Below are positions 275 through 15,682 of a DNA stretch of 15,682 nt, piece after piece (positions within the stretch are counted from its first letter, which is position 1; each line of letters opens with the position of its first letter). Position numbers and translations under genes: made by a program. The notes below the pieces were generated by a model, which saw only the letters and a program-made list of their open reading frames with translations, searched no databases and was not told the origin of the DNA. This DNA comes from a virus (Duplodnaviria; Heunggongvirae; Uroviricota; Caudoviricetes). The stretch lies in IMG/VR virus record IMGVR_UViG_2526164665_000024; one strand, written 5' to 3'.

Positions 275-276
275 CG

Positions 277-567
277 TTACCCCCTTGCGCGTGGTTTCTT
301 CACACCCGGAACGCTGGCGCGGCCTTCCGCCACATCCTGCCCCCGGCCGGTCAGTTCCGCGATGAAATAACCGTTAATCAGAACGCGTTTGCGCACCAGT
401 CCCTGCTCGGCAAGCCAGGCAATGTGGGTGTGAACGGTGTCGCGGGACACGCGGTGGCCGTAATCATCCAGACAGTCCTGGAGCACGGATTCACCCAGTT
501 CACCGTTGTAATCTGCCAGCGACCGCAGAATGACCAGACGCTGATCTTCAGTAATGAAATCACTCAT
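277..567 (-). CDS. hypothetical phage protein (occupies Mu gp26-like position)
   Basis: 96-aa ORF; stop at 277-279 lies 2 nt from next start; no motif I can recognise. Confidence 0.45.
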   Translation of the reverse strand: MSDFITEDQRLVILRSLADYNGELGESVLQDCLDDYGHRVSRDTVHTHIAWLAEQGLVRKRVLINGYFIAELTGRGQDVAEGRASVPGVKKPRARG

Positions 568-871
568 TGCGTTTTTTCCTTACAGCCTGCTCCAGCAGCA
601 GTTCGTTCTGATAGGAGACAGAGCGGAGCGTGGCGTTCGTGGTTTTCAGTTCACCCCGCAGGGTCACGATTTCCACATTCAGACGGTTGACCTCGGCTTC
701 TGTCGGCAGTGACGACAGGCGGGTTTCCACCTTCTCAACGCGGTCGGAGAGTTTTTCAAAGGCCTCGCGGGGGACAAACGTTTTGCGCATCAGCGCCATG
801 AATATCCCGCCAGCGGTTGCCGTCGCCGAAAGGATCGGCACAACATAATCTTTAACGATGCTGACCCACAT
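560..871 (-). CDS. small membrane protein: N-terminal TM helix plus coiled-coil C-terminus (lysis-associated, possibly releasin-like)
   Basis: ATG 871-869 with GGAGG RBS 6 nt upstream; hydrophobic stretch VVPILSATATAGGIFMALM followed by charged heptad-like region; located in lysis cluster. Confidence 0.45.
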   Translation of the reverse strand: MWVSIVKDYVVPILSATATAGGIFMALMRKTFVPREAFEKLSDRVEKVETRLSSLPTEAEVNRLNVEIVTLRGELKTTNATLRSVSYQNELLLEQAVRKKRNE

Positions 872-1079
872 GACGGGCCTCCATGATGTTCTGGCAGTTC
901 ACACAACGGATGGCATCCGGCACAGCAACAAGACGCGCGGCGGGGATCTCTCCGCCACAGTCCGCGCAAATACGTCTACCCGGAGCATCCATTGCCCGGC
1001 GCTTACGTGTCAGCCGGTTACAAAGGGCGCGTTCTGATCCCCGCTCCATCACAGCCTGAGCACGATCTGAATCATCCAT
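852..1079 (-). CDS. TraR/DksA-family C4-type zinc-finger protein
   Basis: CxxC-x17-CxxC (CADCGGEIPAARLVAVPDAIRCVNC); ATG 1079-1077 with AAGGAAAAAGG RBS; the ORF-track extension to 1145 overlaps the spanin gene and lacks an RBS, so the shorter start is preferred. Confidence 0.65.
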   Translation of the reverse strand: MDDSDRAQAVMERGSERALCNRLTRKRRAMDAPGRRICADCGGEIPAARLVAVPDAIRCVNCQNIMEARHVGQHR

Positions 1080-1089
1080 ACCTTTTTCC

Positions 1090-1461
1090 TTACTTCGTCT
1101 TTCCTGCCGGAACAGCAGGCGTTCCGGCCATATCAGTAAATTCATGTTGTCGCCGCGCCTCCAGACGACGAATACTGGCCTTGTCCACGTTGCAGTTCTT
1201 GATCACCGCCAGCAGTTGCAGGTTGTAAGTGACCGATGCCCCAAACGTGAACGGCTCCGGCGCAGGAGGGACCAGGCAGTCAGCCAGCCATTCAGCGGGG
1301 ATCGGCACCGGCTTCACAGGCACGTATTTCACAGACGGCCCGGCGCACCCGATCAGCCACATCATCAGGAACAGGGGCAGAGGCCGCAGGCACTGCTGCC
1401 AGCGACCGGCGGACAACGCTCTGCTGCTCCTCGCTGTGCTGAATGTTCTGTTGCTTTTCAT
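1090..1461 (-). CDS. Rz1-like o-spanin lipoprotein candidate (start uncertain; could be as late as ATG 1365)
   Basis: Lipobox-like LIGC followed by Pro-rich segment CAGPSVKYVPVKPVPIPAEWLADCLVPPAPEPF; in alternate frame overlapping the 3' end of the Rz-like gene; N-terminal 97 aa of ORF 1090..1656 look like out-of-frame read-through. Confidence 0.35.
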   Translation of the reverse strand: MKSNRTFSTARSSRALSAGRWQQCLRPLPLFLMMWLIGCAGPSVKYVPVKPVPIPAEWLADCLVPPAPEPFTFGASVTYNLQLLAVIKNCNVDKASIRRLEARRQHEFTDMAGTPAVPAGKTK

Positions 1462-1792
1462 TCGTGGCCGCCTCACTGATTTGTGAAATGAGTTGCAGGG
1501 TGTGCTGCTGATTTGCCAGCACCTGACGCGCCTCATCCCGCTCACGTACAAGTACCTGATTATTGTCCTCAAGGCGCTGCGTCTTCTGGTGCATTCCCCA
1601 TATCGCAGCAACCAGTACAGCGATAATCCCCAGCGCCGCCATGCACGCCCCGGCAATCAGGGCCGGTAAGGCGTTATTCACCGCAGCCACAGGACACCCC
1701 GTAACAGCAGTACCGCACACAGCAGCGCTATCATGAGCGGTCGCCAGAAGCGGTTCAGACTTTCGGCAAGTCGTAGCGACATAACCATTCAT
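1292..1792 (-). CDS. Rz-like i-spanin candidate
   Basis: Hydrophobic N-terminal segment (ALPALIAGACMAALGIIAVLVAAIW) followed by Q/E-rich coiled coil; immediately downstream of endolysin. Start ambiguous: TTG 1813, ATG 1792 or ATG 1642. Confidence 0.4.
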   Translation of the reverse strand: MNGYVATTCRKSEPLLATAHDSAAVCGTAVTGCPVAAVNNALPALIAGACMAALGIIAVLVAAIWGMHQKTQRLEDNNQVLVRERDEARQVLANQQHTLQLISQISEAATNEKQQNIQHSEEQQSVVRRSLAAVPAASAPVPDDVADRVRRAVCEIRACEAGADPR

Positions 1793-2255
1793 CCGCCGAA
1801 CGGCGGGCCTCAAGGCCGGGAAGTTTCACCCCCTTTGAATAAATCCAGCGGATATACTGCTTACAGGACGCGGGCATCTGCCCGGCATTGATCAGGCGCA
1901 GAAGCGTGGAGTTGCGGAAGTTCGTTTCACCAGCCCAGAAGATCCCACGAAGCCAGCGCCACGTCTGACCACGGGTAAGCGGCACCTGAACACGCCGATC
2001 AATGGCCGCAAAGGCCCATTTCATGTCCTTTTCCAGCAGTTTCAGACATTCTTCATCCGTCAGGGTCATACCCGGTTTCACATCCGGGCCGGTATGGCCG
2101 TAACAGATGGTGGGTGTACCGGTGGGATCGATATACGTGGAGTTTTCTTTCCCTTCCCAGTAACCGGTGTAATGCGTGGCAATCGTGAACGTCCCGGCAC
2201 CGGCCAGAACAAGGGCAATCAGCTTTTTACGCAGTGGTGCGGGGAGTTTTGGCAT
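1755..2255 (-). CDS. lys: SAR endolysin, T4-lysozyme-like (GH24 family)
   Basis: N-terminal signal-anchor-release-like segment (KKLIALVLAGAGTFTIA) plus lysozyme catalytic signature EGKENSTYIDPTGTPTICYGHTG; ATG 2255-2253. Confidence 0.8.
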   Translation of the reverse strand: MPKLPAPLRKKLIALVLAGAGTFTIATHYTGYWEGKENSTYIDPTGTPTICYGHTGPDVKPGMTLTDEECLKLLEKDMKWAFAAIDRRVQVPLTRGQTWRWLRGIFWAGETNFRNSTLLRLINAGQMPASCKQYIRWIYSKGVKLPGLEARRSADEWLCRYDLPKV

Positions 2256-2256
2256 T

Positions 2257-2294
2257 GTTACGCTGTCTCATGATGTTCTCTGAGTCAGCGTAAC
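2257..2294 (-). promoter_or_regulatory. perfect 9-bp inverted repeat (GTTACGCTG / CAGCGTAAC, 20-nt spacer) ending 1 nt upstream of the lys start codon
   Basis: Read directly from sequence: arms at 2257-2265 and 2286-2294; lies between the corrected stop of the Mor/C-family gene (2327) and lys ATG (2255). Confidence 0.35.
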
Positions 2295-2326
2295 GGTGAA
2301 GGAAAGGCGGCAGGCTTTGCGGAATA

Positions 2327-2736
2327 TCAGAAAAGTGGCGGTTGCGTTCTTGCCAGATGCAGACGGCGCTGTTCACGTATGACGGTATAAATCTGGGTTT
2401 CTGACATCCGGTAATGTCGGCGAAGGGATTCAATTTTCTCGCCCCGGTCCCAGCGCGAAAATATCTCATTGTTTCGCAGCTCGGCAAAGAGAGATTCCCC
2501 GACCGGCAGGTAATAACCCCGTCCGCCCATATAGGCGGCCTGAGCCGCAGCCACCTTGCGTGCCAGTTTACCGGCCAGTACCGGCTCAATCCCCTGACGC
2601 TGAAGTTCTGCGCCGGTGACTTCAACCAGTTCTGACAGGGTCCGTGGCCAGTTCTTTTGAGAACATCATCAGGGATGTCATCAAGGCGGTCGATAAGGGC
2701 GTGCAGTTGCTCACTGTCACCACCAAACATGCTCAT
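2327..2736 (-). CDS. Mor/C-family transcriptional activator; frame broken by an apparent 1-nt deletion in the T4 run at 2655-2658
   Basis: N-terminal part in frame of ORF 2227..2736 (MSMFGGDSEQLHALIDRLDDIPDDVL); C-terminal part in frame of ORF 2327..2554 (LSELVEVTGAELQRQGIEPV...LFAELRNNEIFSRWDRGEKIESLRRHYRMSETQIYTVIREQRR), matching the Mor/C HTH pattern recalled from Mu Mor. Adding one A restores a ~136-aa protein. ORF-track tail 2227-2326 is read-through. Confidence 0.6.
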
Positions 2737-2820
2737 CTGAGTTTCTGCCGTATCAGCCTCCGGTTCTCGCGTTCCCGGTAAGTTTAAAATAAAAATCCCG
2801 CGTTGTGGCGGGATTTGGGG

Positions 2821-3353
2821 TTAACGGGGAAGTGATTTTTCATACTGCCTGCAAACGGCGTCATACCCCATCAGCGTGCGTTCGGGCATTCCCATCGCGG
2901 CCAGCATTTTGCGGCGGTGCCATCGCTTGAGACGCTCCAGCACATCTGAGGCCAGGGCGGGGTGTTGCTCCAGCCACTGCCAGTTTGCCACACCTTCGCC
3001 ACCGTTCTGCGCGGCCGTCTGCGATTTCACCCAGCGGTTAAGGGCGGTTTCCGCACCATCAGAGATAAAGCCCTGCCGGTGCATCACCCTCCAGATGGCA
3101 CGAATTTTGGCGGTCACCGTACCCGGTTTTAAGGCCTGGTTAACCGGCTTCTGGCGCACTTTAAAACCGCGTTTTTTGAAACATCCAGCACGCGGGATAA
3201 CTCATCCGGTGACATATCCCGGCAGCTGGTTTTGCCGGTGGCTGCCAGCAGCGCGGATGTATAAGTCTCATCATCCAGGGCAAGCTCGCGCTTTGCCACA
3301 TGAATGGCGGATATCAGTTTTCCTCTCATACCGTATTTACCTTTTACGGACAT
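2821..3353 (-). CDS. GemA-like protein (Mu gp16 family); frame broken by apparent 1-nt deletion in the T-run at 3172-3177
   Basis: KLISAIHVAKRELALDDETYTSALLAATGKTSCRDMSPDELSRVLD is the characteristic GemA-family N-terminal motif (memory); continuation FKKRGFKVRQKPV... is in the frame of ORF 2821..3159. Start ATG 3353 chosen for its AAAAGG RBS. Confidence 0.5.
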
Positions 3354-3370
3354 GGAAAGCCTTTTCTGCC

Positions 3371-3622
3371 TCATCCCACCGGGCATGGTGTGTTGGTGGA
3401 ATAAATCATTATGTGCCAGCCATCTCTGGTTGTTATTCGGCAGAAAAATTCACCGCTATATAACACAATGGCCTGCTGAATGAGCGCATCAGCCGCCCGT
3501 TCAACCGGATGTCTTTTATCAAAAAAGCAGATGATTTTTCGACATAACCACCGGGTAATAACAAATGCGCCGAAAAAGGATGTGATATATAAGCACCAGA
3601 ACAACAGAGAACTATTGTCCAT
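3371..3622 (-). CDS. small membrane protein, unknown function (AT-rich island gene 2)
   Basis: ATG 3622-3620 with AAGGAG RBS 7 nt upstream; N-terminal hydrophobic helix LLFWCLYITSFFGAFVITRWL; local GC clearly lower than flanking phage genes. Confidence 0.45.
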   Translation of the reverse strand: MDNSSLLFWCLYITSFFGAFVITRWLCRKIICFFDKRHPVERAADALIQQAIVLYSGEFFCRITTRDGWHIMIYSTNTPCPVG

Positions 3623-3809
3623 TATCTTTCTCCTTATTCACTCTTCTGCGGCATTCGGCACAGTCATCAGGGCTTTCAAATGTATCCGGCTCGCGATTAT
3701 GAGCCAGATATAACCACCGTCCACATATACTGATATTTTCGCCTGTTTTAAAAAAATGATGCTTCCTGGCCATTAGTGGCCGCGCCCATCCAGCGGGTAG
3801 ACTATTCAT
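3612..3809 (-). CDS. small Cys/His-containing protein, unknown function (AT-rich island gene 1)
   Basis: ATG 3809-3807 with GGAGGA RBS 7 nt upstream; C-x7-H ... C-x2-C spacing (ICGRWLYLAH...DDCAEC) could be a zinc ribbon; 11-nt overlap with the next gene, whose RBS it contains. Confidence 0.4.
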   Translation of the reverse strand: MNSLPAGWARPLMARKHHFFKTGENISICGRWLYLAHNREPDTFESPDDCAECRRRVNKEKDNGQ

Positions 3810-4134
3810 TTGCTTTATCCTCCATACTGGAGAGAATCATATGTATTAATGTCGGGCGTGGAGATATACGCATTTCATTAAGCGTCTGAAGGGCAGCAAC
3901 AGCTGCCTGTTTATCGGTGCCTTTGGCAACTTCAGCAAGAGAATGCACAATCCATAACGGGCTTAACGCTACGGCTGAATGCAGAATCATGTCATCCATA
4001 ATAATTTCTGGCATATCCCGTTTGTCACATTCTTTATCCATAAAAGAAACAATTTTTTCTGCATCTTCCGGTTTCATGCCTCCGGCGATGAGAATTTTAC
4101 GATATTCATAAGACGATCTTAATTCAATACTCAT
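3802..4134 (-). CDS. hypothetical protein (AT-rich island)
   Basis: 110-aa ORF; likely starts at second ATG (4134-4132) given AGGTG position; no recognised motif. Confidence 0.45.
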   Translation of the reverse strand: MSIELRSSYEYRKILIAGGMKPEDAEKIVSFMDKECDKRDMPEIIMDDMILHSAVALSPLWIVHSLAEVAKGTDKQAAVAALQTLNEMRISPRPTLIHMILSSMEDKANE

Positions 4135-4149
4135 CATTCACCTGCCTGT

Positions 4150-4518
4150 TTAATCAGTTTCCAGTGCTTTGCTACGGGCAACAGCCTCACACTCAAAAAA
4201 TACCGACTCCGGCACACGCTCCTTTAATTCACGAACAAGAAAATCATTAACGAGTTCATGACGTCTTATATTTCTTTCCTTTTCCTCCTGGCGCAATACA
4301 GCAAGGCGGTATTCAACAGTCCGGCGTTGTTTCTGAAAGACAGCCAGTGCTTTTCTGGCAGAGTTACGCCATGTATCATCGCCACAGGGTTCGTATTCAA
4401 GCTGAAATTTAATCTCTTCAATGGTTTCTTTTATTTTTGCCAGCAAGCTAAGACAGTCGCTGATTGTCTTCAGTTTTTCATTATCAATATAACTTCTCAC
4501 GCATTCACCTCCCGTCAT
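4150..4518 (-). CDS. hypothetical charged/helical protein (AT-rich island)
   Basis: ATG 4518-4516 overlaps the corrected stop of the upstream gene (ATGA coupling); ORF-track GTG start at 4542 is an alternative; K/E/R-rich helical-looking C-terminal half. Confidence 0.45.
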   Translation of the reverse strand: MTGGECVRSYIDNEKLKTISDCLSLLAKIKETIEEIKFQLEYEPCGDDTWRNSARKALAVFQKQRRTVEYRLAVLRQEEKERNIRRHELVNDFLVRELKERVPESVFFECEAVARSKALETD

Positions 4519-4825
4519 TCCGGTAAAGCTGAAATATGGCACCAGTGCGTCACCTGTCCGTCCTCATCTTCAAGGCAGGCTCCGGTTTCTTCATCAATAA
4601 AAAGCCTTCATACCCCATATGGCCGATGCGCAGTTCCTGTTGGTCACCATACTGAACAATCAGCACGACAGCCTCCATATCAGGCGGGAAAGCATCATTC
4701 AGTGAATGCCAGGGATAACCGCGCAAATCCCCGAAATAAACACCGGTCAGCGTTCCGCCACAGACCGGCATTCCGACGGCACACACAAGGGGTTCATCTG
4801 ATTCAACAAATAATGTCGTTATCAT
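4515..4825 (-). CDS. hypothetical protein; frame broken by apparent 1-nt deletion in A-run 4599-4603 (plus strand)
   Basis: ORF 4550..4825 ends with an implausible tail; shifting one frame gives an acidic C-terminus ...GFFIDEETGACLEDEDGQVTHWCHISALPE and an ATGA overlap with the next gene. Start ATG 4825 overlaps upstream stop. Confidence 0.4.
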
Positions 4826-5372
4826 GGCATTAATTCCCGTAATACAACATCTTCGGCAGTCCGACGACGGTGATAAATAAAACTCACCGTGCCCTCGGAT
4901 AATTCAAATTTCTCGCCGATTTCCCTAAAGGTAAGACGCCGTGGTGATTCAGCATCCCGTAATTCACGAATAAGACGAACATCATCGTCAGGTATGCGGG
5001 TGAAGGGCAGCAACTCTCCGTATTTTTCATGCTTACGCCAATATATCGCGCCCGATTGTGGACAGAATCCCGGTCTCGCCCCAGATATTCTCCTATTTGC
5101 TTACCGGTCATTGTTCTGGCATTTTTTCGGATAAATTTATCTTCATCAGGTTTAAATCTGAGGCGTTTGCATTTGAGCAACTCCGGGTAAGTACCGCGTA
5201 ATAAAACAATCCGGTTATGTACACCCCAGAAACTTCTTTTTATCCTGACAGCAATATCCTTAACCGGGGTGGATGGATAAAGCGCAATCAGCAGCGCATC
5301 TTCTTCAGGTGTCCATGCGCGAACATGAGCGGGTGCACGGCCTTTTCTCCCCATGGGTTGTAATATCATCAT
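4822..5372 (-). CDS. HTH DNA-binding protein with Mor/C-like C-terminal domain; frame broken at T-run 5023-5027 (plus strand)
   Basis: N-terminal part (ORF 4884..5372 frame) has two W/F-x-x-E/D-E-D repeats with HTH-like segments (WTPEEDALLIAL..., FKPDEDKFIRKNARTMTGKQIGEYLGRDRDSVHNRARYIGV); C-terminal part (ORF 4822..5013 frame) LIRELRDAESPRRLTFREIGEKFELSEGTVSFIYHRRR resembles Mor/C HTH. An A6 run would fuse them; otherwise two genes. Strong AGGGGGTGA RBS before ATG 5372. Confidence 0.45.
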
Positions 5373-5375
5373 GCA

Positions 5376-5891
5376 TCACCCCCTGACTCGCTTTTCAGCA
5401 GCATAAAACTCATCAGACAGAATTTCGGTCATTTTCTGTTTTGCGGGTTTTACGCCGCACTGAAGGTAAATCACATCGTCAACGCAGAACCACTCCACAG
5501 GGCCAAACAGGATTGCCGAGAAATCAATGCCCAGCCAGAACAACAGTGCATCGGTTCTGGCATACGTGACGGGCGAATATTCACGCCACAGACTGTTAAG
5601 TTCGTCAGAGGCAACGCGCAGGGCTTTGGGAATACGTGATGTGCGCGGTGTGCAGCTCCAGCCATTCGACGCAGTTGGTTTTCGCCATAAATCACGATGA
5701 AAAGGATATTTGTCCTCCGTAAAACGCAGTCCCTTAAAACAAAAACCACTGATACTGAATTCAAATACCGACCGGCACGCAACATTCAGCACGGCCTCAA
5801 GGCGTTTCGCCTCATCTTTTACCGTCTGGCAGTCCTGCTGGTATTTTTGCCACGCAGCCAGCGCGGAAGGGTTTGATGTTTTAAAGAACAT
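5376..5891 (-). CDS. hypothetical early-region protein (171 aa)
   Basis: ATG 5891 overlaps upstream stop (TAATG) with GGAGGTG RBS; no recognised motif. Confidence 0.5.
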   Translation of the reverse strand: MFFKTSNPSALAAWQKYQQDCQTVKDEAKRLEAVLNVACRSVFEFSISGFCFKGLRFTEDKYPFHRDLWRKPTASNGWSCTPRTSRIPKALRVASDELNSLWREYSPVTYARTDALLFWLGIDFSAILFGPVEWFCVDDVIYLQCGVKPAKQKMTEILSDEFYAAEKRVRG

Positions 5892-6424
5892 TACGCCACC
5901 TCCGCTGATATCCCGGCAGGCGCGGCCGTCCGGTCAACAATCAGGTAACGCAGAACGCGCGAGGTGATATTCCAGCCGCTTAAACCGCAGATAATGACGC
6001 CCAGGCGGATGTCGATATACGACATCACAAACTGGGGCACGCCTTCTTTCATGGCCTGCTCATCAACTTCAGCCACCACATAAACGGTTTCACAGGTCAG
6101 CACGCCCTGAGCAAATTCCCACGCCATCGACGGAATATCATGCCCTTCAATCCACGGCAGGGATTTTCTGAAGCTGCACCACTGAACATCATCAGCCGCA
6201 GACTCCTGGCTGCATTTGCGACGAACCGGCTGCACCGGGCGGGGACGCGGAATATCATAAAAACCGTTACATTCCGTCAGCACGCCTGCATCAACCGCAT
6301 CACGCAGAAAATAAACCATGGAGGATGGCGGCATATTCATTTTTTCAGCCAGAATACCGCAGGTCAGACGTCCGTAAATACGCAGCCAGTTTTTAACCCC
6401 TTCAAGCACTTTTGCATCAATCAT
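5891..6424 (-). CDS. hypothetical early-region protein (177 aa), possible N-terminal winged-helix
   Basis: ATG 6424 with GGAGGAA RBS; N-terminal segment GRLTCGILAEKMNMPPSSMVYFLRDAVDAGVLTE looks wHTH-like (weak inference). Confidence 0.5.
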   Translation of the reverse strand: MIDAKVLEGVKNWLRIYGRLTCGILAEKMNMPPSSMVYFLRDAVDAGVLTECNGFYDIPRPRPVQPVRRKCSQESAADDVQWCSFRKSLPWIEGHDIPSMAWEFAQGVLTCETVYVVAEVDEQAMKEGVPQFVMSYIDIRLGVIICGLSGWNITSRVLRYLIVDRTAAPAGISAEVA

Positions 6425-6427
6425 GAA

Positions 6428-6970
6428 TTATTCCTCCGTCAGCGCCACATATTCAGAATGTTTAATCTCCTGGCATTCTTCAGGAATACCCCCTTTTATT
6501 TCCCTGCCATAAGTTCCTACTTTAAACACCACGCACAGGGCATCACGGGAGAGTGACGGGGTCCACCAGGAGTCCGTGTTAAACATGGAGGGGATTCTCA
6601 TTACCCCCAGCTTTTCACAGAGCCAGACAAGGAAATCAGGACGCTTTCTTAACTCGCGTTCAGCGGCTTCAACCATTGCGGCAATCGCCGGACCTTCAGG
6701 GCATGACTCATCAGGTCTGGCAATAAAGCACGGTCCGCCCCCGATAAAAGCCACATCATCGCGCTTACGCCAGCCCGCAGGCAGAGAACCAGAAAAATAA
6801 AACTCACTGATTACGTCCATGGCGAACGGCTTTAAGCGCAATCCGGCAGCGCCTGTATTTTTCAGTAATGCCCGAAGAATACTGTTGCGTAGCGGTAAAA
6901 CATCCCGCTGATATTCGGTTAAATATTTATTTGTGTACACTATGTCTAATTTGAAATAAAAATATGCCAT
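6428..6970 (-). CDS. hypothetical early-region protein (180 aa)
   Basis: ATG 6970 with AAGGAA RBS; first gene after the gam-downstream intergenic gap; no recognised motif. Confidence 0.5.
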   Translation of the reverse strand: MAYFYFKLDIVYTNKYLTEYQRDVLPLRNSILRALLKNTGAAGLRLKPFAMDVISEFYFSGSLPAGWRKRDDVAFIGGGPCFIARPDESCPEGPAIAAMVEAAERELRKRPDFLVWLCEKLGVMRIPSMFNTDSWWTPSLSRDALCVVFKVGTYGREIKGGIPEECQEIKHSEYVALTEE

Positions 6971-7067
6971 GTTTCCGATTCCTTATTTTCAGCTTTCAGG
7001 CGCAGGCAGTCCCCTGACGCGAGCGCCATAATTAAAACGATGTGATATTTAAAGATTTAATGTGGTG

Positions 7068-7597
7068 TTATTTATTCAGTCCGGCGTCCTGTTCAAAAGG
7101 CTCGACATAAAAACTTTCAGCGCCTTTATTCACCTTTATACCGGCAATGCCTTTCACCGCATCCGGCTCCGCCAGGACGGCTTCCTTGTTCACTTCCTCT
7201 TTCGTGCGGATGAATCGCTCAAGCCCCATAAGGCGCAGCATTTCAATCACGCCTTCCACATCACGGCTGACGCTGCATGATGGATTTCCCAGCCGCCATG
7301 ACACCGTGCCGGTGGTCAGATTGGCAGTTTTTGTTTTGCCGCCGTTCGTCAGCTCATCTCGGTTGGTTTTGCACCAGTCCTGAATCCCCTTAAAAAGCAC
7401 TTTGATTTCTTTTTAAGGTTTTCAATTTGCGGCGTATAACGGGCGGTGATTTCTGCCACTTCATCATTCATCGCCGTTTCCAGCCGCAGCGCCTCTCGCT
7501 GAATATCGCCCAGGGTGCGGATATCGCGGCTGACCTCTTCGCGGGTCTGCGGTGCAGCCTCGGCTGCGGCCTTTAATTTTGTAACGCGTTTTGCCAT
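7068..7597 (-). CDS. gam: Gam, host-nuclease inhibitor (Ku-like DNA end-binding protein); frame broken by apparent 1-nt deletion in T5 run at 7410-7414
   Basis: N-terminal ORF 7349..7597 and C-terminal ORF 7068..7400 together align with Mu Gam as I recall it (ASRLETEMNDAIAEIT ... GWCEANRDELTNGGKVKTANL ... LERLGLQRFIRTKQEINKEA ... PFEQEAG). Restoring one A in CTTAAAAAG gives continuous ...IENLKKEIKVLFKGIQDWCKTNRDELTNGG. Confidence 0.85.
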
Positions 7598-7608
7598 TTT
7601 GTTTTTCC

Positions 7609-7902
7609 TTATTGCAGTGTGCCTGATGCTTTATGCACGCGGTGGCGTTTAATGATGGCATCCGCCCCAAAAGCCTGTACAGATGCCTGAAATTCCGCTG
7701 AGAGAAACTGAATAATTTCAGGACTGTGATACTGGAGAATACTTACATAAACGTCACAGAGTGACGTCGGCCTGTTATTCGTATCACGTTCTGTTTTTAC
7801 ATCCACACCAATCTTTTCATGCACTTCAACACAGTCATTGCCTGCCGGTTTTTCGTCATGCGAAACATGCTTAAATTCAAAAATAACGCGTACTTTGCTC
7901 AT
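7609..7902 (-). CDS. hypothetical small protein, tandem paralog 2 (MSKVRVIFEFKH...)
   Basis: ATG 7902-7900 with AGGGGT RBS; N-terminus and internal pattern parallel the adjacent gene 7907..8179. Confidence 0.5.
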   Translation of the reverse strand: MSKVRVIFEFKHVSHDEKPAGNDCVEVHEKIGVDVKTERDTNNRPTSLCDVYVSILQYHSPEIIQFLSAEFQASVQAFGADAIIKRHRVHKASGTLQ

Positions 7903-7906
7903 GGAA

Positions 7907-8179
7907 TTACCCCTGCTGATTAAATTCATTACCTTTAATAACCCCGGAACGCATGCTCATATCTTTCATGAGCGCACTGGCTTTCATTGCCACAAGTTCA
8001 GCAAAGTCTCTGCTTTCCGCGAGCATAACCACCCCAAAAATCATGGCAGGTCCATCACCTTTCTGCTTTATCCCGGTTGAACGTATGTCCAGACTTATCC
8101 CCATGCGCACTGTTCCATCCGCGTTTTTATGGATAACGTGCTCCTTGTATTCGAAAATAATGCGTACGACTTTACTCAT
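7907..8179 (-). CDS. hypothetical small protein, tandem paralog 1 (MSKVVRIIFEYKEH...)
   Basis: ATG 8179-8177 overlaps upstream stop (ATGA); GAGGA RBS; paralogous to 7609..7902. Confidence 0.5.
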   Translation of the reverse strand: MSKVVRIIFEYKEHVIHKNADGTVRMGISLDIRSTGIKQKGDGPAMIFGVVMLAESRDFAELVAMKASALMKDMSMRSGVIKGNEFNQQG

Positions 8180-8457
8180 CCTCTGGTCCTCGTTCTGTTT
8201 GGATAACTGACCCGGCGTCTGACCTCACGGCAGAACCGAATCATGGCATTAAAGGCTTCTTCCTCCGTCACCGCTTCCGGTATCCCCGGAACCAGTAACT
8301 GCTCCTGTTCATCACGTCCATGACGCGCCATAACCTCAATCACATGCCGTACCGTGGCAGGCTTTCCGGCAACTATCGGCAATGCACCTTCCGGCAGGAC
8401 GTAACCAAACTCAATAAGACCACTCGACCACGCCCATGCAATGAGAATTTTTTTCAC
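8176..8457 (-). CDS. hypothetical early-region protein (93 aa)
   Basis: GTG start 8457-8455 preceded by GGGAGGTG RBS; no recognised motif. Confidence 0.5.
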   Translation of the reverse strand: MKKILIAWAWSSGLIEFGYVLPEGALPIVAGKPATVRHVIEVMARHGRDEQEQLLVPGIPEAVTEEEAFNAMIRFCREVRRRVSYPNRTRTRG

Positions 8458-8458
8458 C

Positions 8459-8713
8459 TCACACCTCCCAGTAAACCGTGCAGCCGCTGATGCGGGTGGC
8501 CTTCACACGGCGGCGCAGGCCGTTGGTCTGTATGGTGATTTCAATTTCACCGGTTCCCTGCACGTTGCCTACCGGCGGCGTGGTTTTCAGTGCAAAACGT
8601 TGCGGATAGCGCTTACTGCGTTCCAGTACCGCACCGGCAAGTTCGGTCAGACGGCGCGCGCTGTTCAGGGAGTCGAATAAATTCATTTTGTTACCGCAGG
8701 ATTGCATATTCAT
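8459..8713 (-). CDS. hypothetical early-region protein (~84 aa)
   Basis: ATG 8713 (MNMQSCGNK...) with GAGGTG RBS; the ORF-track start at 8725 lacks an RBS. Confidence 0.45.
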   Translation of the reverse strand: MNMQSCGNKMNLFDSLNSARRLTELAGAVLERSKRYPQRFALKTTPPVGNVQGTGEIEITIQTNGLRRRVKATRISGCTVYWEV

Positions 8714-8725
8714 ATAACACCTCAT

Positions 8726-8947
8726 TTAGCTGACTTGTTTCGCACCAACAGAACGGCATATTCCGCTGTAAACTTCTGTCGCACCTTCGCGATCAAGTCC
8801 GGCAGATATCACCATTCGTGTGCGGTCATTAAATTCAAAAAGTAAATCGCCACATTCTTTATTTTCGGCCAGTGAAATCACCTTCACGTTATCGAAATTA
8901 ACCAGGTAAAAGCGTCCGTAAATATCAGGAATATAAAATACCGCCAT
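8726..8947 (-). CDS. small protein in the Kil position immediately after B (putative host cell-division inhibitor, by position only)
   Basis: ~74 aa, starts within a few nt of the B stop (GTG 8953 overlapping, or ATG 8947 with AGGTG RBS); Mu kil has the same size and position. Sequence identity not verifiable from memory. Confidence 0.35.
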   Translation of the reverse strand: MAVFYIPDIYGRFYLVNFDNVKVISLAENKECGDLLFEFNDRTRMVISAGLDREGATEVYSGICRSVGAKQVS

Positions 8948-8949
8948 AA

Positions 8950-9882
8950 TCACACCTGTGAGAGTAATTCAGGGTTGGTATAAACCTCTTTAAAGGCCGC
9001 ATTAATATGTTTTTCTGTCAGCGCCGCACCTTCACCGCTGGCGGTGAGCCACGCCTGGTTAAGCGTATGTGTCAGAACGCGTAACGCTCCCGGCTTTTCA
9101 GCGATAGCCTGCATGACGGCCAGCTCGGCCTCACCACTGATCCCCCACGCCCTGGCAATGGCCAGCACATCCGCCTTTTTGGCCTTGCGAAGTTGTTTTG
9201 TACGGGCAAGACGGCTGAACAGGCGCGATAAATCATCAAAGGCGCGGCGTCCACCTTTAAACAATCCGCGCGGGTTACCAATAAGCACCATCCCGATCCC
9301 CGTGGCGTCCTGAATTGCCCGGAGTTGCTCCAGACCGTCAATACCAAGATGATCCGCCTCATCCACAATCACCAGTCCACGCGTTCCCATCAGGCGACGG
9401 CGGATGGCGCGGGATAATGCCCCTTTGTTCGCGCGGGTGTAATCAATCCCCAGCGCATCGGCCAGCTCCAGCAGACACTCCGTGACGCTGGAGTGCGCGG
9501 GTGACAGGGTGATCATCCAGGTGTTTGGTTGCTCCTGGCAGTAATTACGGGCAGTGGCCGTTTTACCCACACCCGGTACGCCCACAATAACGTTAATACA
9601 GCCCATCAGACGAACCGCCTGAAACAGTGTGCGCAGCTCCTGGACTGTCTGCGTTTCCACAAACTGCGGCGGTTCCGGCAGTGCGCTTTGTTTATTCCAG
9701 TTCTCATACCAGGAACGCAGGGAAGCAGCCACAGCAGCGTTATCGCCTTTATATTTTCCCTTACGGAAAGCCGATAATGTGCCGTCGGAAATTCCCGCCT
9801 CTCTGGCGATGGCATACTGTGTCAGTACGCCGCCATCAATAAGTTCATCAATGGTCTTGATTACATCGTTAATATCAGTCAT
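8950..9882 (-). CDS. B: MuB-like AAA+ ATPase, transposition target-DNA activator
   Basis: 310 aa (Mu B is ~312); Walker A GVPGVGKT; N-terminal HTH-like region; directly downstream of transposase A; GAGAGG RBS before ATG 9882. Confidence 0.9.
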   Translation of the reverse strand: MTDINDVIKTIDELIDGGVLTQYAIAREAGISDGTLSAFRKGKYKGDNAAVAASLRSWYENWNKQSALPEPPQFVETQTVQELRTLFQAVRLMGCINVIVGVPGVGKTATARNYCQEQPNTWMITLSPAHSSVTECLLELADALGIDYTRANKGALSRAIRRRLMGTRGLVIVDEADHLGIDGLEQLRAIQDATGIGMVLIGNPRGLFKGGRRAFDDLSRLFSRLARTKQLRKAKKADVLAIARAWGISGEAELAVMQAIAEKPGALRVLTHTLNQAWLTASGEGAALTEKHINAAFKEVYTNPELLSQV

Positions 9883-9916
9883 ATTATTAACCTCTCATTT
9901 GATACCTTGTTTAATC

Positions 9917-9954
9917 AAATAACCTGAGTCGCCGCTCGGGTTATTTTTTTATTT
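9917..9954 (+). terminator. stem-loop (AAATAACCTGAG / CTCGGGTTATTT, one mismatch) followed by a T-rich run on the plus strand; terminator-like structure in the A-B spacer
   Basis: Read directly: arms 9917-9928 and 9935-9946, then TTTTTTTATTT. On the minus (sense) strand it is preceded by an A-run rather than followed by a U-run, so if it terminates anything it would be antisense transcription. Confidence 0.3.
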
Positions 9955-10082
9955 CAGGCCAGCGGGTCATTTTCTTTTAATTTCGCTTCCAGCAACTGCA
10001 ATCCCCGCTGGAAATTACGCTCGTATTCTTCATCAGGTTCATCGTCAGCGACCGGTTGCTGAACGGTCACCGTATTACCCAC
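9954..10082 (-). CDS. small ORF in the A-B spacer (42 codons from GTG), or out-of-frame C-terminal extension of transposase A
   Basis: Frame of ORF 9954..10160 gives a protein-like acidic tail NTVTVQQPVADDEPDEEYERNFQRGLQLLEAKLKENDPLA; its upstream part overlapping A looks like out-of-frame junk. Frame relation to A is not a single-base deletion. Confidence 0.25.
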   Translation of the reverse strand: MGNTVTVQQPVADDEPDEEYERNFQRGLQLLEAKLKENDPLA

Positions 10083-12045
10083 TAGGGCGGTATATGTTTT
10101 CCAGCCAGGGCTCCTGCGGCTTGTGCTCCAGCACGTTGACAACCTCATCCTCGGCATCACGGATTTTTTCCTCTGCGCGTTTACGCATGCCTTTAAGGCG
10201 TTGCTGCTGTTTGTAGTATTCCGCGCTAACCGGGAAGGCTTCGCGTTTATTACCGTCCCATACCGCCTCGCAAATCACGCTGCCATCCAGGCGACGTACG
10301 GTAATTCGTTCGGCATCATGAATGTCATAGCTGATAAGCACCTTACGGCCATGCTCGTCACGCAGCTCGGGCGCGTAGTAAATATTATTCAGCCAGCGTA
10401 TTTCACAGCGTCTTACAGGGCGTTCCACCATCGGCCGGAACATATCCCGCAGCTCAACATCGGACAGCCATTCAATTTCCGTGTCCTCTTCCGCCAGGCG
10501 TTTTTTTCTGAACTCCGCCGGGCTGTAATGCTTGCCGTTCGGCTTCACCGGTAATTCATCGTGCGGCCGGTTGTTGTACCACTCAACACCATCACGAATG
10601 GCATCAATCAGTTCAGCCCAGGACGGTAAATCACGCATCGCTGACTGTTGCCGGGCGTTCAGCCGTTTGCCCTGTTGCAGGGCGGTAAATGCCGAGCGTA
10701 AATCGCGGTTGGTTTTGCGTAACGTCTCGCGATCTGCACCTTTCCCGAAATAGGTGCGGTATTTACGGGCTATGCGCATCGGTAATGTGCGGTTAAGCCG
10801 TTCGATAATGCCCCGTCCCTGCGGGTTACCGGCAATCCCGGTCGGGTGATTAATCCCCAGTCGCGGCAGTATCCCCACAACCTCCTTATCCAGGATGTCG
10901 GCGGTTTCCCCGGAGCCGTTATCCGAGTAATACAGAAACGGTTTGCCGTGATGGCGAATGCCGTGCTGTATGGCACCGGCTACGGCGAAAACATTTTCAG
11001 CCAGGTCAAGGCTCCAGCCCACCACAAAGCGCGTGCCACCGTCGATAACAAAGGTCACTTCCGGTGCAAATGGCCGACCGTGAACCGGGTGTGCGCATTT
11101 CAGCTTCATGCCGTGACCGTCACCAATCCAGACATAATTCACCGGCATTTTTGACCAGTCGCGGCGCGTGAATCCCTCAAGCTGGCGGTATTCACTGCCG
11201 GTCACCCGGCCTTTTTGTTTCACCACTTCCGGCAGTTTCTTCATTGCGCGGCGAATGGTGTCATAAGACGGCATGATATCGAGCATATAAGGCTCATCAG
11301 CGTGCCGGTGCTGCCATTCAGCGACAAAATCCTCGTAAGCCTCGGTCATTGGTCGGCCGTTTGACTGGCGATACTGCGCCAGAAATTCGGGCAGCCAGTT
11401 AATATCTTCGGCTTTTATTTCCTGGCGCTTACCCGGTGCCAGTAAAAGCAGGCGTTCAGCGGCGTTCTGCGCCTTGTTAAAGGCCGCAATCCAGCGTTTC
11501 AGCGTGATTTCACTTAACGCGCGGCTGTTTCCCTTTTTGGCGTTCGCCGTCTCAACCATTGCCACAATGCGCTCGTCCAGCTGCGAACGTGCCAGGTTGT
11601 CAACGATAAACCGGATAGCCTTCGCACAGCTGAAACCAGGTTGTTGCGCGACTTTCAGAACTTCGCTGACGATCGCGATTCGTGCATCAGCCACCTGGCG
11701 CTGGTTTTCAGTCAGGGCATTAAGGCGTTCGACCATCAGTTGTGGTGATCCGCGATATGCCTCCACCGCATCAACCACGGCAGGCGAGCGTCTGGCCTTT
11801 GTCACCACCGGAGCCGGTGATTCATCGACTTTTTGCGTCATCAGTTGCAGGGCGTAGCGTTCACGTAATGCCTGCTGCGTCACTTCAGGTAAACAGTCGA
11901 TGCTGTATTCAGTTGCTTTAGAGCCTGAGCGACGACGGGAACAACAGCTTTTCCCTTGTACGTAACGTTGTAATGCCTGGCGAATACCTTTTGTTGTAGC
12001 AGGCATTCCGGGCGCGCCAATCAGTTCTTTTGCAATGACATACAT
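10075..12045 (-). CDS. A: MuA-like DDE transposase
   Basis: 656 aa (Mu A is 663); N-terminal enhancer/end-binding domain resembling Mu A (GSKATEYSIDCLPE vs Mu GGKAIEYN..SLP); DDE-region motifs WIGDGHGM and YYSDNGSGE; gene order ner-A-B. Confidence 0.92.
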   Translation of the reverse strand: MYVIAKELIGAPGMPATTKGIRQALQRYVQGKSCCSRRRSGSKATEYSIDCLPEVTQQALRERYALQLMTQKVDESPAPVVTKARRSPAVVDAVEAYRGSPQLMVERLNALTENQRQVADARIAIVSEVLKVAQQPGFSCAKAIRFIVDNLARSQLDERIVAMVETANAKKGNSRALSEITLKRWIAAFNKAQNAAERLLLLAPGKRQEIKAEDINWLPEFLAQYRQSNGRPMTEAYEDFVAEWQHRHADEPYMLDIMPSYDTIRRAMKKLPEVVKQKGRVTGSEYRQLEGFTRRDWSKMPVNYVWIGDGHGMKLKCAHPVHGRPFAPEVTFVIDGGTRFVVGWSLDLAENVFAVAGAIQHGIRHHGKPFLYYSDNGSGETADILDKEVVGILPRLGINHPTGIAGNPQGRGIIERLNRTLPMRIARKYRTYFGKGADRETLRKTNRDLRSAFTALQQGKRLNARQQSAMRDLPSWAELIDAIRDGVEWYNNRPHDELPVKPNGKHYSPAEFRKKRLAEEDTEIEWLSDVELRDMFRPMVERPVRRCEIRWLNNIYYAPELRDEHGRKVLISYDIHDAERITVRRLDGSVICEAVWDGNKREAFPVSAEYYKQQQRLKGMRKRAEEKIRDAEDEVVNVLEHKPQEPWLENIYRPSG

Positions 12046-12046
12046 A

Positions 12047-12295
12047 TCATGACGCCTTTCTCATATAGCTCTTAACCTGGTATCGACTGGGCCAGATTTC
12101 TTCAGGCGATACCCCAAGAGCATCAGCAATTATTTGCTGATACGGTCGGCAAGGAGTACGTAATACGCTTTTCAGCGAATCCCTGCTGTAACCAGCCTTT
12201 AAAGATAAAGAGCGCAGTGATAAGCCAGCCATGTGTAAGCGCGCCTTGATGATTTCAGGCGGCCAATCGTGATCTGAAACTTCTCTTCTACTCAT
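12047..12295 (-). CDS. ner: Ner-like DNA-binding early regulator
   Basis: 82 aa; DWPPEIIKARLHMAGLSLRSLSLKAGY...QQIIADALGVSPEEIWPSRYQ aligns closely with Mu Ner as recalled (DWHRADVIAGLKKRKLSLSALSRQFGY...EQIIANALETKPEVIWPSRYQ); GAGGAAG RBS; directly upstream of A. Confidence 0.85.
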   Translation of the reverse strand: MSRREVSDHDWPPEIIKARLHMAGLSLRSLSLKAGYSRDSLKSVLRTPCRPYQQIIADALGVSPEEIWPSRYQVKSYMRKAS

Positions 12296-12485
12296 ACTTC
12301 CTCTATTCTAAAAAGTTACCCGCGCGGATATTCGTGCGGATATCTGCACGGGTAAATAATGCATCACTAAAAATACCAAATCAAGGTATTTTTGGTATTT
12401 TGGCTAATTTTTGCTTTTGTCCTTATTTTTCAATTGGATAAATAGAAAGAAACCTTTCCTTAGAAAAGCACCAAGAGGTATCTTT
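12296..12485. promoter_or_regulatory. divergent promoter/operator region between ner and the repressor gene
   Basis: 190-bp AT-rich intergenic region between divergent genes; 7-bp inverted repeat TTACCCG/CGGGTAA (12316-12322, 12349-12355) enclosing direct repeats GCGGATAT (12324-12331, 12336-12343); 11-bp perfect palindrome arms AAAATACCAAA/TTTGGTATTTT (12370-12380, 12391-12401) with tandem GGTATTTT repeats; AAGAGG RBS at 12472-12477. Confidence 0.55.
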
Positions 12486-13016
12486 ATGTCGCAGGGAAAA
12501 GAACCTGTTATTGAACGTATTGGAATGCTTACAAAGCGCTACCCTTCAAGAAGTGCAGCTGCCAGAGCGTGGGGAATCAATATCAACACATTAAACAGCT
12601 ATTTCAAGGGAGGACAAACACAACCAGCCCCCAGAGAAAGTATCCTTATACGAATTTCTGAAAGTGAAGGAGTTAGTCTTGAGTGGCTTAAAGAGGGCAA
12701 GGGTGAATCACCAAACGATGTTGGTATTTGTGGTAATTTTGGTTGTTCTGGTGATAAGGGAGATCAACTTACACAGATGCTTTCATTCCTTACGAAAGAC
12801 GAACGAGAACAGTTAACCAATCTCCTTGCTCGCAAAGGTGTAGAGACGGTTCTGACACTGCTGGATAAAGAAAACCAGGATTTATTACAACTAGAAGGCA
12901 GGAAGCGCCTGGCTGCGTTGATGATTGTAGATATGCCAGACGATTGCGTCAGAGAGATTTTGGAAAAAACCGAGACAAGTAGGCAATCAAATCCGGTAGA
13001 ATCTAAAGCGGGTTAG
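12486..13016 (+). CDS. prophage repressor, HTH DNA-binding (Mu c-like by position)
   Basis: ATG 12486 with AAGAGG RBS (the ORF-track start at 12411 has none); HTH-like SRSAAARAWGININTLNSYFKG; transcribed divergently from ner-A-B, the position of Mu c. Confidence 0.65.
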   Translation: MSQGKEPVIERIGMLTKRYPSRSAAARAWGININTLNSYFKGGQTQPAPRESILIRISESEGVSLEWLKEGKGESPNDVGICGNFGCSGDKGDQLTQMLSFLTKDEREQLTNLLARKGVETVLTLLDKENQDLLQLEGRKRLAALMIVDMPDDCVREILEKTETSRQSNPVESKAG

Positions 13017-13178
13017 TTTGGCGAGGCTGGCCCGTATGTTAGTTGCCATATAGATTTAATGAAGTTTTAAACGCTTTAAAAAGTTGAGATCGCAGTATCA
13101 AAAGTTTTGCCGATTTTAGAATAAACGATTAATTATTGCACAATCGGTATCAAATAGACTTTAAGCGCTCATCCAGAC

Positions 13179-13260
13179 ATCACCTGTTTTATTTCAGTAT
13201 CTTACAGGTGATTTCACCTCCTTTCACTAAAACCCTCGTTGGTATCAAATGATTCACCTG
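13179..13260. repeat. cluster of TCACCTG / CAGGTGA motif copies incl. two palindromic arrangements; candidate protein-binding sites (possible transposase end-binding sites)
   Basis: ATCACCTG 13179-13186 and its inverse CAGGTGAT 13205-13212; AGGTGA-tt-TCACCT 13206-13219; GATTCACCTG 13251-13260; direct copies ~34-40 bp apart, 165-245 bp beyond the repressor stop. Confidence 0.4.
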
Positions 13261-14446
13261 GTTACATACTGCCGGAACAACCAGCAAACGGGCATTGTGT
13301 TCTGAAATCCAGGCTATTGATTCAACGTCAGCGACAGATCTGCGCTGTAAAAGAACTTGTAAAACAACGTAATAGAATTATCCGGAATGGTGGCGACTAT
13401 GCACTAGAACACCACAATTTCGCTCTCTCGGTAAGGCACTGTCACAGCATTCAACAGAATGTGACTTGCCAGATTTATTAGCGCCACCAGATGTTTAACC
13501 GGGTAACCACGACCCAGTCGGGGATATATTCCATCTTCTCGCTGACATCATCAAGAATAAAAAGGTTTATCACACTCAGAGCAACGTTCTTCAGCAGGCG
13601 GGATAATTCTTCAACATTTAGAAGATGTGTTATTAAAGGCATACAAACTGGACGTATTGTATTTTCTTTTGGTGGTTGACCTAAGGTAGCAGTTTATCCT
13701 GATGCGCTGAGATTTCTGTAATATCTACGTCAACATTCTCCTCGAATAGAAAATGCAGCCCCGGCAAGTGATTCACATTTTTTAACAAAACGTTGTTAGC
13801 GTGCCATTTTCAGAAGCTCTCCAAGAAAGCGAATTCTTTTCTCAAATTCTGCATTCTCAGACACAGCTTTCTACTCCATGGTAATGGCCCAAATACGAAG
13901 TTGCTCAGGATCATTAGTGGTGCTGAGAAGTTAAATAACCATGCGGAGTACCACTCGTCATCACGTATTTATATATCATGAAGCTATTGTTGTGTTTTGT
14001 ACATCAGTAGATATATTCTGATATACTCCTTTTGCTAGACATAACCTTTCACCTGCTTGCAAAGCTTCTGTGTTCTGACATTGCCAAATTGTTGCAATTC
14101 TGTATCCAGCCTTCTTTCAGTCATAGCTTCGGGCCGCGATAAGACTCACTGATCTGACCCTGATTCCTCTTGCAGACTTTATAGACCAATTAAAATGCAG
14201 TTTCTGCAGGTCAACGTCTGACCATCATTGTCATCACTCTGGCCATTAGAGTAACCTTCTGCATTCATCCTTTTGTAAAAAGTTTATGTCAGTATCAGCA
14301 ATTAACCGGACCTGATACTGATATGAGTCTTACCGCATATACGGTCAATTTCAGCAATTAATTACATTATCCACGCCAAAGTGTTTGTCATCGCAATGAT
14401 GGTACCTTCTTTCAGACACCATTTTTTCAACTCCGTTTTCCACGGA

Positions 14447-14471
14447 CCGCACTCTTATGTCAAGAGTGCGG
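14447..14471. repeat. perfect 10-bp-stem hairpin (CCGCACTCTT-atgtc-AAGAGTGCGG) directly abutting the IS3 terminus
   Basis: Read directly; last base of the stem is 14471 and the IS3 terminal TGATCC starts at 14472. No adjacent T/U tract on either strand. Confidence 0.6.
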
Positions 14472-14501
14472 TGATCCTACCCACGTAATATGGACACAGG
14501 C

Positions 14502-15324
14502 CTAAGCGAGGTTCTGGTTTTCAAATTGTTCCGGACTGAGGCCGCCACACCAACTGTGCCGCCGCCACCGATTGTAATCACATTCGATATAATTAAACAC
14601 CGTTGCCCGCATTATTTCCCGGCTGATAAAGTGTTCTCCATGGATACATTCCACTTTCAGCGAATGAAAGAAGCTTTCCACGCAGATTATGCCGCTTCAG
14701 TTGCGCCTGATAATCTGCTGAACAGTACTGGCCTCCACGGTCCGTGTGAACGATAACGTTCCGGGGCCTCTTACGCCGCCATAGCGCCATCTGCAGGGCA
14801 TCGCAGGCCAGTTGCGCCGTCATGCGTGGCGACATTGACCAGCCAATAACGGCACGTGACTACAGGTCAATGACCACTGCCAGATACAGCCAGCCTTCAT
14901 CTGTACGTAAGTACGTGATGTCTCCTGCCCACTTCTGGTTCGGGCCACTGGCGTAAAAATCCTGCTCCAACAGATTTTCTGACACAGGCAGGCCGTGTGC
15001 GCGGTAGCTGACCGGGCTGAACTTCCGGGAGGCCTTTGCCCTCAGTCCCTGACGGCGCAGGCTTGCCGCCACGGTTTTTACGTTAAAGGGGTAACCCTGA
15101 GCACGCAGTTCATCCGTCAGGCGTGGGGCACCGTAACGCTGTTTTGACCGGGTAAAAGCCGCGAGGACAACGCTGTCGCAGTGTTGGCGGAACTGCTGAC
15201 GCGTGCTTATCCTTGTCCGCCGCTGACACCACGTATACCAGCCGCTGCGGGCCACCCGGAGCACGCGGCACATTGCTTTGATGCTGAACTCAGCCTGATG
15301 TTTTTCAATAAAGACATACTTCAT
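14502..15324 (-). pseudogene. insF: IS3 orfB transposase (DDE), inactivated by an in-frame TAG and a 44-bp deletion
   Basis: Matches IS3 Orf[22 protein letters not shown]... up to ...LAVVIDL, then TAG (14860-14862) where I recall Trp (TGG); later ...KRHNLRG runs directly into [16 protein letters not shown]... in another frame, i.e. ~15 codons (SMSAKGCCYDNAC) missing between two CTGCGTGG repeats (junction ~14678-14685). Confidence 0.85.
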
Positions 15325-15619
15325 TTCAGGCGCTTCGCGAAGTATGTCGCGGCCTTTTGGAGGATAGCCAGCTCTTCATCCCGTTCTGCCAGCTGGCGTT
15401 TGAGACGTGCAATCTCGGTAGACATCTCCAGTTCACGTTCAGAAGACGTCTGCTGATTTTGCTGTTTACTGCGCCAGTTGTAGAGCTGTGATTCATACAG
15501 GCTGAGTTCACGGGCTGCGGCAGTAACACCGATGCGTTCAGCAAGCTTCAGGGCTTCACTGCGAAATTCAGGCGAATGCTGTTTACGGGGTTTTTACTGG
15601 TTGATACTGTTTTTGTCAT
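15321..15619 (-). pseudogene. insE: IS3 orfA (HTH transposase subunit), frameshifted by 1-nt deletion in homopolymer at 15591-15595
   Basis: Translation MTKTVSTSK then shift; canonical IS3 OrfA as recalled is MTKTVSTSKKPRKQHSPEFRSEALKLAERIGV...; window has AAAAACCCC where A6 is expected; downstream frame gives ...[37 protein letters not shown] with TGA overlapping orfB ATG. Confidence 0.85.
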
Positions 15620-15682
15620 GTGAGTCACCTCTGACTGAGAGTTTACTCACTTAGCCGCGTGTCCACTATTGCTGGGTAAGAT

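Follow-up and report, generated by a model that had tools for sequence, protein, structure and literature searches.

The window analyzed here spans contig AIGP01000076.1 (15,682 bp) in its entirety; this contig belongs to GCA_000249995.2, a draft assembly of Escherichia coli DEC10A (O26:H11), and carries the early and lysis segment of a Mu-like prophage together with 2.4 kb of chromosome ending in IS3. Single-base insertions and deletions (indels) break several of its genes, and comparison with related sequences makes it highly probable that these lesions are a sequencing or assembly artefact and not the marks of a decaying prophage, a reading favored by every indirect test. So understood, the lesions are not a biological feature. 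The DEC10A draft consensus would carry about eleven single-base length miscalls, eight of them contractions (seven in A/T runs with a true length of 4-6) and three of them one-base insertions, and the prophage beneath the miscalls is most likely intact. The changes are of one base and concentrated in runs, they are private to this assembly, indels are in excess over substitutions, and the same process is seen elsewhere in the assembly and in the sequencing project.

Single-base lesions in the DEC10A contig

Lesions were called by alignment of the window to its closest relative, CP034806, and then by a seven-way alignment of the window and six relatives. Compared with CP034806 (99.8% identity), the window displayed 13 substitutions and 10 single-base indels, the latter comprising seven deletions and three insertions; an eighth deletion is located in IS3. 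All 10 prophage indels are private to the window, with the relatives unanimous against it in the seven-way alignment. As a result, seven prophage genes are out of frame and one has an internal shifted patch, in addition to IS3 orfA (Table 1). In the 98-aa hypothetical gene, a stop codon between the two lesions leaves an 83-aa product, while the extra T in MuA gives an open reading frame (ORF) of 656 aa versus 696. The lysozyme keeps its 166 aa with 6 residues scrambled, and this exact protein was found in DEC10A only.

Table 1. Single-base lesions and other features of contig AIGP01000076.1 (coordinates refer to the window; HTH, helix-turn-helix).
Feature	Span	Strand	State in window	State in relatives	Consequence or basis
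Lysozyme gene	1755-2255	-	CCC at 1944-1946; single C at 1962	CC; CC	Compensating pair
Mor gene	2327-2751	-	T4 at 2655-2658	T5 in all	-1 frameshift, read-through to 2227
gp16/GemA gene	2821-3329	-	A3 at 3179-3181	A4 in all	Basis: alignment, repair
98-aa hypothetical gene	3326-3622	-	T4 at 3342-3345; A3 at 3403-3405	T5; A2	
103-aa hypothetical gene (hyp103)	4515-4825	-	A5 at 4599-4603	A6	Product shortened to 91 aa
183-aa HTH DNA-binding gene	4822-5372	-	T5 at 5023-5027	T6	
gam	7068-7597	-	T5 at 7410-7414	T6	Split into 82-aa and about 110-aa pieces
MuA	9954-12045	-	Extra T at 10083, outside homopolymer		Last 42 residues replaced
IS3 orfA	about 15321-15619	-	T5 at 15591-15595, codon 10	T6 in O26 genomes and intact IS3 copies	
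T8-run edge	8447-8454	.	Apparent T-to-A substitution		Equivalent to A1T8 -> A2T7
Left part of Mu-like prophage, early and lysis	1-13266	-			Basis: relatives' annotation, Pfam, O26 chromosome match starting at 13267
MuB	8950-9882				
ner-like gene	12047-12295				
Repressor	12486-13016	+			
Chromosomal flank: IS4 remnant and degenerate IS3	13267-15682	.			Matches O26:H11 genomes such as 11368

A preliminary description of this DNA had listed six interruptions at A/T runs, each ascribed to the loss of exactly one base. All six are present, and the one-base loss holds for each of them against every relative; five lie where they had been placed, while the GemA lesion is located at 3179-3181 and not at 3172-3177, an adjoining T6 that is the same in the relatives. 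The list, however, was incomplete, missing five further single-base indels (at 3342-3345, 3403-3405, 10083, 1944-1946, and 1962), and the three insertions contradict the claim that all events run in the same direction. Nor are the events confined to homopolymers, given that the T added at 10083 is not in one and that the C-run pair is not A/T.

Repair in silico returned all affected proteins to full length, with no amino acid difference from the proteins of the relatives except one in Mor, placing them 0-1 residues from widespread intact alleles. The repaired Mor (141 aa) matched PF08765 at 2.8e-32 and the repaired gp16/GemA (169 aa) matched PF06252 at 5e-30. The expectation that the restored proteins match their families was therefore supported by Pfam for Mor, GemA, and Gam; the gene broken at 5023, described earlier as Mor-like, is instead an HTH gene, its 183-aa protein obtaining Pfam HTH hits below threshold only. 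Likewise, the description of the genes as otherwise intact applies to the prophage genes, which are full length after repair, and fails for IS3, where orfB carries a deletion of ~35 bp.

Run-length specificity and indel excess

Six of the seven prophage deletions fall within A/T runs of at least 4, which account for 5.4% of all bases (P = 1.6e-7). When IS3 is counted, seven of eight deletions are in A/T runs that have a length of 4-6 in the relatives. Among A/T runs of at least 5, 5 of 59 are shorter by exactly one. Three events depart from the pattern: the T inserted at 10083, and the changes in C runs at 1944 and at 1962.

The balance of private indels and substitutions sets the window apart from its relatives, with a ratio of 10:9 versus 8:242 (Fisher P = 7e-9); individual relatives displayed 0:0, 0:0, 0:42, 2:46, and 6:154. 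A natural ratio of 0.033 would predict about 0.3 indels, and the probability of 10 or more is 1e-12. The indel-to-substitution ratio is thus ~30-fold above the natural divergence of the same prophage (~1:1 versus ~1:30). Lesion density is about 0.8 indels per kb.

Three further differences deserve mention alongside these counts. At 8447-8454, the apparent substitution at the edge of the T8 run could be a run-length miscall pair. A three-base difference from the closest relative at 569-571, in the overlap of the DUF2730 and VpaChn25_0724 genes beside a T run, was considered as a further indel pair and rejected, since a 103-aa DUF2730 protein identical to that of the window is encoded on 51 contigs, making it a natural allele. 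In the MuA-MuB intergenic region, the T7 at 9944-9950 is one base shorter in the finished genome CEC12044 and also in AR-0430, DEC6C, and SRR063741, illustrating that the length of an intergenic tract can vary in accepted assemblies, unlike that of the coding tracts.

Occurrence in finished genomes

Comparison with 5,426 finished E. coli genomes disclosed that the window states at 2654, 3178, 3341, and 3403 occur in no finished genome, the best match being 99.3% identical with 803 bases spanned versus 801. The states at 4598 and 5022 were likewise found in none of the 5,426; across 4570-5055, many finished-genome records equal the window except for gaps at precisely these two positions. The MuA insertion at 10083 was seen in 0 of 115 records, and 0 of 214 records were identical to the window in the gam region. 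With respect to the gam tract itself, 245 of 246 copies in finished genomes are not T5.

Recurrence within DEC10A and in other datasets

The assembly contains a second Mu-like prophage, ~95% identical to that of the window, at the end of contig AIGP01000031.1. In this copy, MuA is broken into pieces of 543 and 188 aa and gam into pieces of 82 and 78 aa, and at least nine private 1-bp indels occur in about 4.4 kb, including the same gam A6→A5 contraction and a MuA A7→A6 contraction. Independent origin of the same rare gam lesion in two diverged prophages is very unlikely as biology, whereas it is expected from a systematic miscall. Positioned at 3948-11513, this second prophage is inserted in the chemotaxis receptor gene tar (3124-3966); the interrupted tar ORF comprises 280 aa, the match to the O26 chromosome stops at 3952, and the prophage runs to the contig end.

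The 82-aa Gam fragment is also present in two drafts, DEC6C and 9.0111 (twice in the latter), as well as in several read-run assemblies from Logan, a number of which carry low SRA accession numbers. In DEC6C, a T6 in MuA is also contracted, and SRR063741 contracts a T8 and a T7 in MuA, the latter a run that is also hit in the second DEC10A prophage. Overall, at least eight independent assemblies have a shortened gam A6/T6 tract. They are DEC10A and 9.0111, each with two instances, DEC6C, AR-0430, and four or more Logan runs, and the contraction is often the sole lesion of the prophage (loci L017-L019). The Logan matches (ERR10498463, SRR054685, and others) were considered as confirmation of the DEC10A sequence and rejected in this role, as they show 15-86 mismatches and come from other strains; they therefore represent recurrence at the same runs. 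In agreement with an artefact, Delannoy et al. (PMC5592225) encountered frameshifts of cas3 and cse1 in the sibling assemblies DEC9A, DEC9E, and DEC10D, suspected sequencing or assembly errors, and excluded these assemblies because of such frameshifts.

Proposed origin of the lesions and evidence against it

A homopolymer-sensitive platform may have under-called run lengths, with the consensus left uncorrected. The likely reason would be poor consensus support in repeated DNA, because IS3 is present in many copies in DEC10A, its Mu-like prophages number at least two, and one of the lesions is located at a contig end. Gene callers would then have split or truncated the affected genes.

Several points weigh against this explanation. 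Its support, which comes from comparing assembled sequences, is indirect. Natural slippage likewise prefers homopolymers, and the MuA insertion and the lysozyme C-run pair are not classic A/T-homopolymer errors. A literature search for the sequencing platform of the DECA drafts found nothing; the drafts are probably 454-based. Two of the window states also exist in accepted assemblies: T5 in gam occurs in one finished genome, AR-0430, where the gene is annotated as frameshifted, and 15 of 4331 finished-genome records have T5 in IS3.

The unique chromosome of the same assembly provides a further counterargument, as it displayed no indels in 5.2 kb (a 3952-bp che region of AIGP01000031.1 plus 1.2 kb of the flank in the window). 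The prophage/IS rate, ~1 indel per kb, would predict 5.5 there (P = 0.004), so that errors distributed uniformly across the assembly are rejected. Either the errors are concentrated in repeats, or real lesions are tolerated in dispensable DNA only. A comparison per run, with 0 of 15 A/T runs of at least 5 affected in unique DNA versus 6 of 64, has no power to decide between the two.

Alternative explanations

The alternative that fares best, to which we assign a small probability, is a mixed case in which most lesions are miscalls and one or a few, such as the MuA insertion, the lysozyme pair, or the gam tract, are genuine mutations. It draws on the T added to MuA at 10083 and on the lysozyme +C/-C pair, which depart from the A/T-run pattern, and on the frameshifted gam T5 of a finished genome. 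In the lysozyme gene, three private transitions at 2037, 2042, and 2046 (two synonymous and one E-to-K) lie 75-100 nt from the +C/-C pair. This cluster has the look of a patch introduced by natural recombination, not of an error, and it indicates some real private variation in the lineage. The candidate states are, on the other hand, private to DEC10A or rare among the 115-246 finished-genome copies, the proteins are unchanged further downstream of the lesions, and the same kind of lesion is present in the second prophage copy and in sibling drafts.

A related proposal concerns gam specifically. Because T5 appears in at least eight independent assemblies, one of them finished, and is often the only lesion of the prophage, the A6/T6 tract could be a genuine slippage hot spot that gives rise to the T5 (gam-off) allele again and again in natural populations, and lysogens might tolerate or even favor this allele. 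We regard this as improbable; the finished genomes weigh against it, with 245 of 246 gam copies not T5, and a systematic miscall site is the other reading.

Genuine degeneration of the prophage, through real slippage under relaxed selection and possibly in a mismatch-repair-defective lineage, appears very improbable. In nature, frameshifts arise most commonly by slippage at homopolymers, and the restriction of the lesions to prophage and IS DNA, with 5.2 kb of unique chromosome clean, would agree with decay. Against it stands the near-equal ratio of indels to substitutions, compared with ~1:30 in the natural divergence of the element. Seven genes are hit, yet apart from one residue in Mor they contain no other amino acid change, and no larger deletions or IS insertions were found in the prophage. 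Slippage would, moreover, have had to strike the identical gam tract in two diverged prophages of one genome, as well as the same runs in draft and read-run assemblies of unrelated strains. A cell could not survive 0.8 indels per kb across its genome, and if the lineage were a mutator, the neutral flank should also have accumulated numerous transitions, yet it contains none. The substitutions, deletions, and rearrangements that accompany lesions in cryptic prophages, and the sharing of lesions by related strains, are not observed here. In preferring error to decay, the preliminary description is thus upheld by the private indels, their ~30-fold excess, the lack of other damage, the recurrence, and the single flank lesion.

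Functional frameshifting at the A/T tracts, whether programmed ribosomal frameshifting, transcriptional slippage, or a phase-variable switch, has a negligible probability and is rejected on conservation and tract length: the gam tract is indeed T6 or T5 depending on the assembly, but each protein is encoded in a single frame in the relatives (>100 finished) with no conserved recoding, tract lengths are invariant in the six relatives, nearly all finished-genome gam copies (245/246) are not T5, and tracts of 4-6 nt are shorter than known contingency or transcriptional-slippage tracts. The sole known programmed site is the IS3 orfA/orfB junction, annotated in FORC_028, which is not the site reported here.

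The underlying Mu-like prophage and its flank

Most ORFs of the window are on the minus strand. According to the annotation of the relatives, the prophage genes follow the order repressor, ner-like, MuA, MuB, small ORFs including Kil, and Gam, continuing with hypothetical genes, the HTH DNA-binding protein, gp16/GemA, Mor, lysozyme, Rz/Rz1, TraR, and DUF2730. Pfam searches with the intact versions identified Mor, GemA, Gam (Phage_Mu_Gam), MuA (Mu-transpos_C/HTH_Tnp_Mu_1), and phage lysozyme, and MuB_C was also matched. A TG dinucleotide (minus strand) at 13266 marks the phage end; together with MuA, MuB, Gam, Mor, and GemA in Mu order, it identifies the element as a Mu-like transposable prophage. 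Positions 1-13266 are 97-99.8% identical to Mu-like prophages of 127 finished E. coli genomes, and gene order and length are collinear with the intact relatives. At ~4134-4800, the FORC_028 prophage carries another module, a 61-aa ORF replacing the 116-aa and 103-aa ORFs, which shows mosaic module exchange among these Mu-like prophages.

The contig covers the left 13.3 kb of the prophage, the right end and the 5-bp target duplication falling outside. One contig end lies within the prophage and the other 2 nt before the IS3 terminus (terminal CA), and both breaks are of a kind typical at repeats. The prophage end at 13266 adjoins a region with a cobU-proximal pseudogene and the IS4 remnant. A Mu-like prophage at the 13266/13267 junction was found in 0 of the 5,426 finished E. 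coli genomes, with every flank match beginning at 13267; the insertion is therefore strain-specific, which would be expected from near-random transposition of the Mu type.

Compared with O26:H11 strain 11368, the 2416-bp flank differs solely by the T6→T5 change in IS3, 90 nt from the contig end. The IS3 copy (14472-15682) has its ~35-bp orfB deletion in common with all O26 genomes; in those genomes, orfB is annotated as a pseudogene and orfA is intact. Given that the deletion is present in all O26:H11 genomes, this is an old, fixed, dead copy.

Consequences for annotation

The biological significance of the lesions is small, and the practical point is one of data hygiene. The warning in the preliminary description that gene calls taken from this sequence would be misled has already come true, as the truncated products EHW54603.1, EHW54611.1, EHW54598.1, EHW54597.1, and EHW54594.1 are deposited in NCBI as separate proteins. 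Among the entries now in public databases are a 'Gam-like' protein of 82 aa, an 'integrase core domain protein' of 656 aa, and a lysozyme in which a patch of six residues is scrambled. Such truncated proteins can seed spurious protein clusters, and the miscalls can make an apparently inducible Mu-like prophage appear defective and artificially raise the number of pseudogenes counted in comparative work based on the DECA drafts.

Comparison with known systems

With cryptic or decaying prophages, the DEC10A element shares the frameshifting of several phage genes. Unlike in those prophages, the lesions are not shared with related strains, neither substitutions nor large deletions nor IS insertions accompany them, and indels are ~30 times too frequent relative to substitutions.

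The element itself resembles the Mu-like prophages of Shiga-toxin-producing E. coli in the LC727881 and LC727895 regions, labelled 'inserted Bacteriophage Mu-like phage', having the same gene order and 97-99.8% DNA identity. It differs from them in its cobU-proximal insertion site, at which no finished genome carries such a prophage. The group is probably the Sakai Sp18-like one; the analysis identifies these elements as Mu-like only.

The lesions most closely recall the homopolymer miscalls of 454 pyrosequencing, Ion Torrent, and early PacBio or Nanopore data. They differ in that some events are located outside A/T runs (the MuA +T and the C-run changes), in that none occurs in 5.2 kb of unique chromosome, and in that a density of about 0.8 per kb is higher than expected for a whole 454 assembly. 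In common with such miscalls, they are changes of ±1 base, mainly contractions of A/T runs of 4-6, that are private to the assembly; independent datasets show them again at the same long runs, and repair of the split ORFs yields products identical to known proteins.

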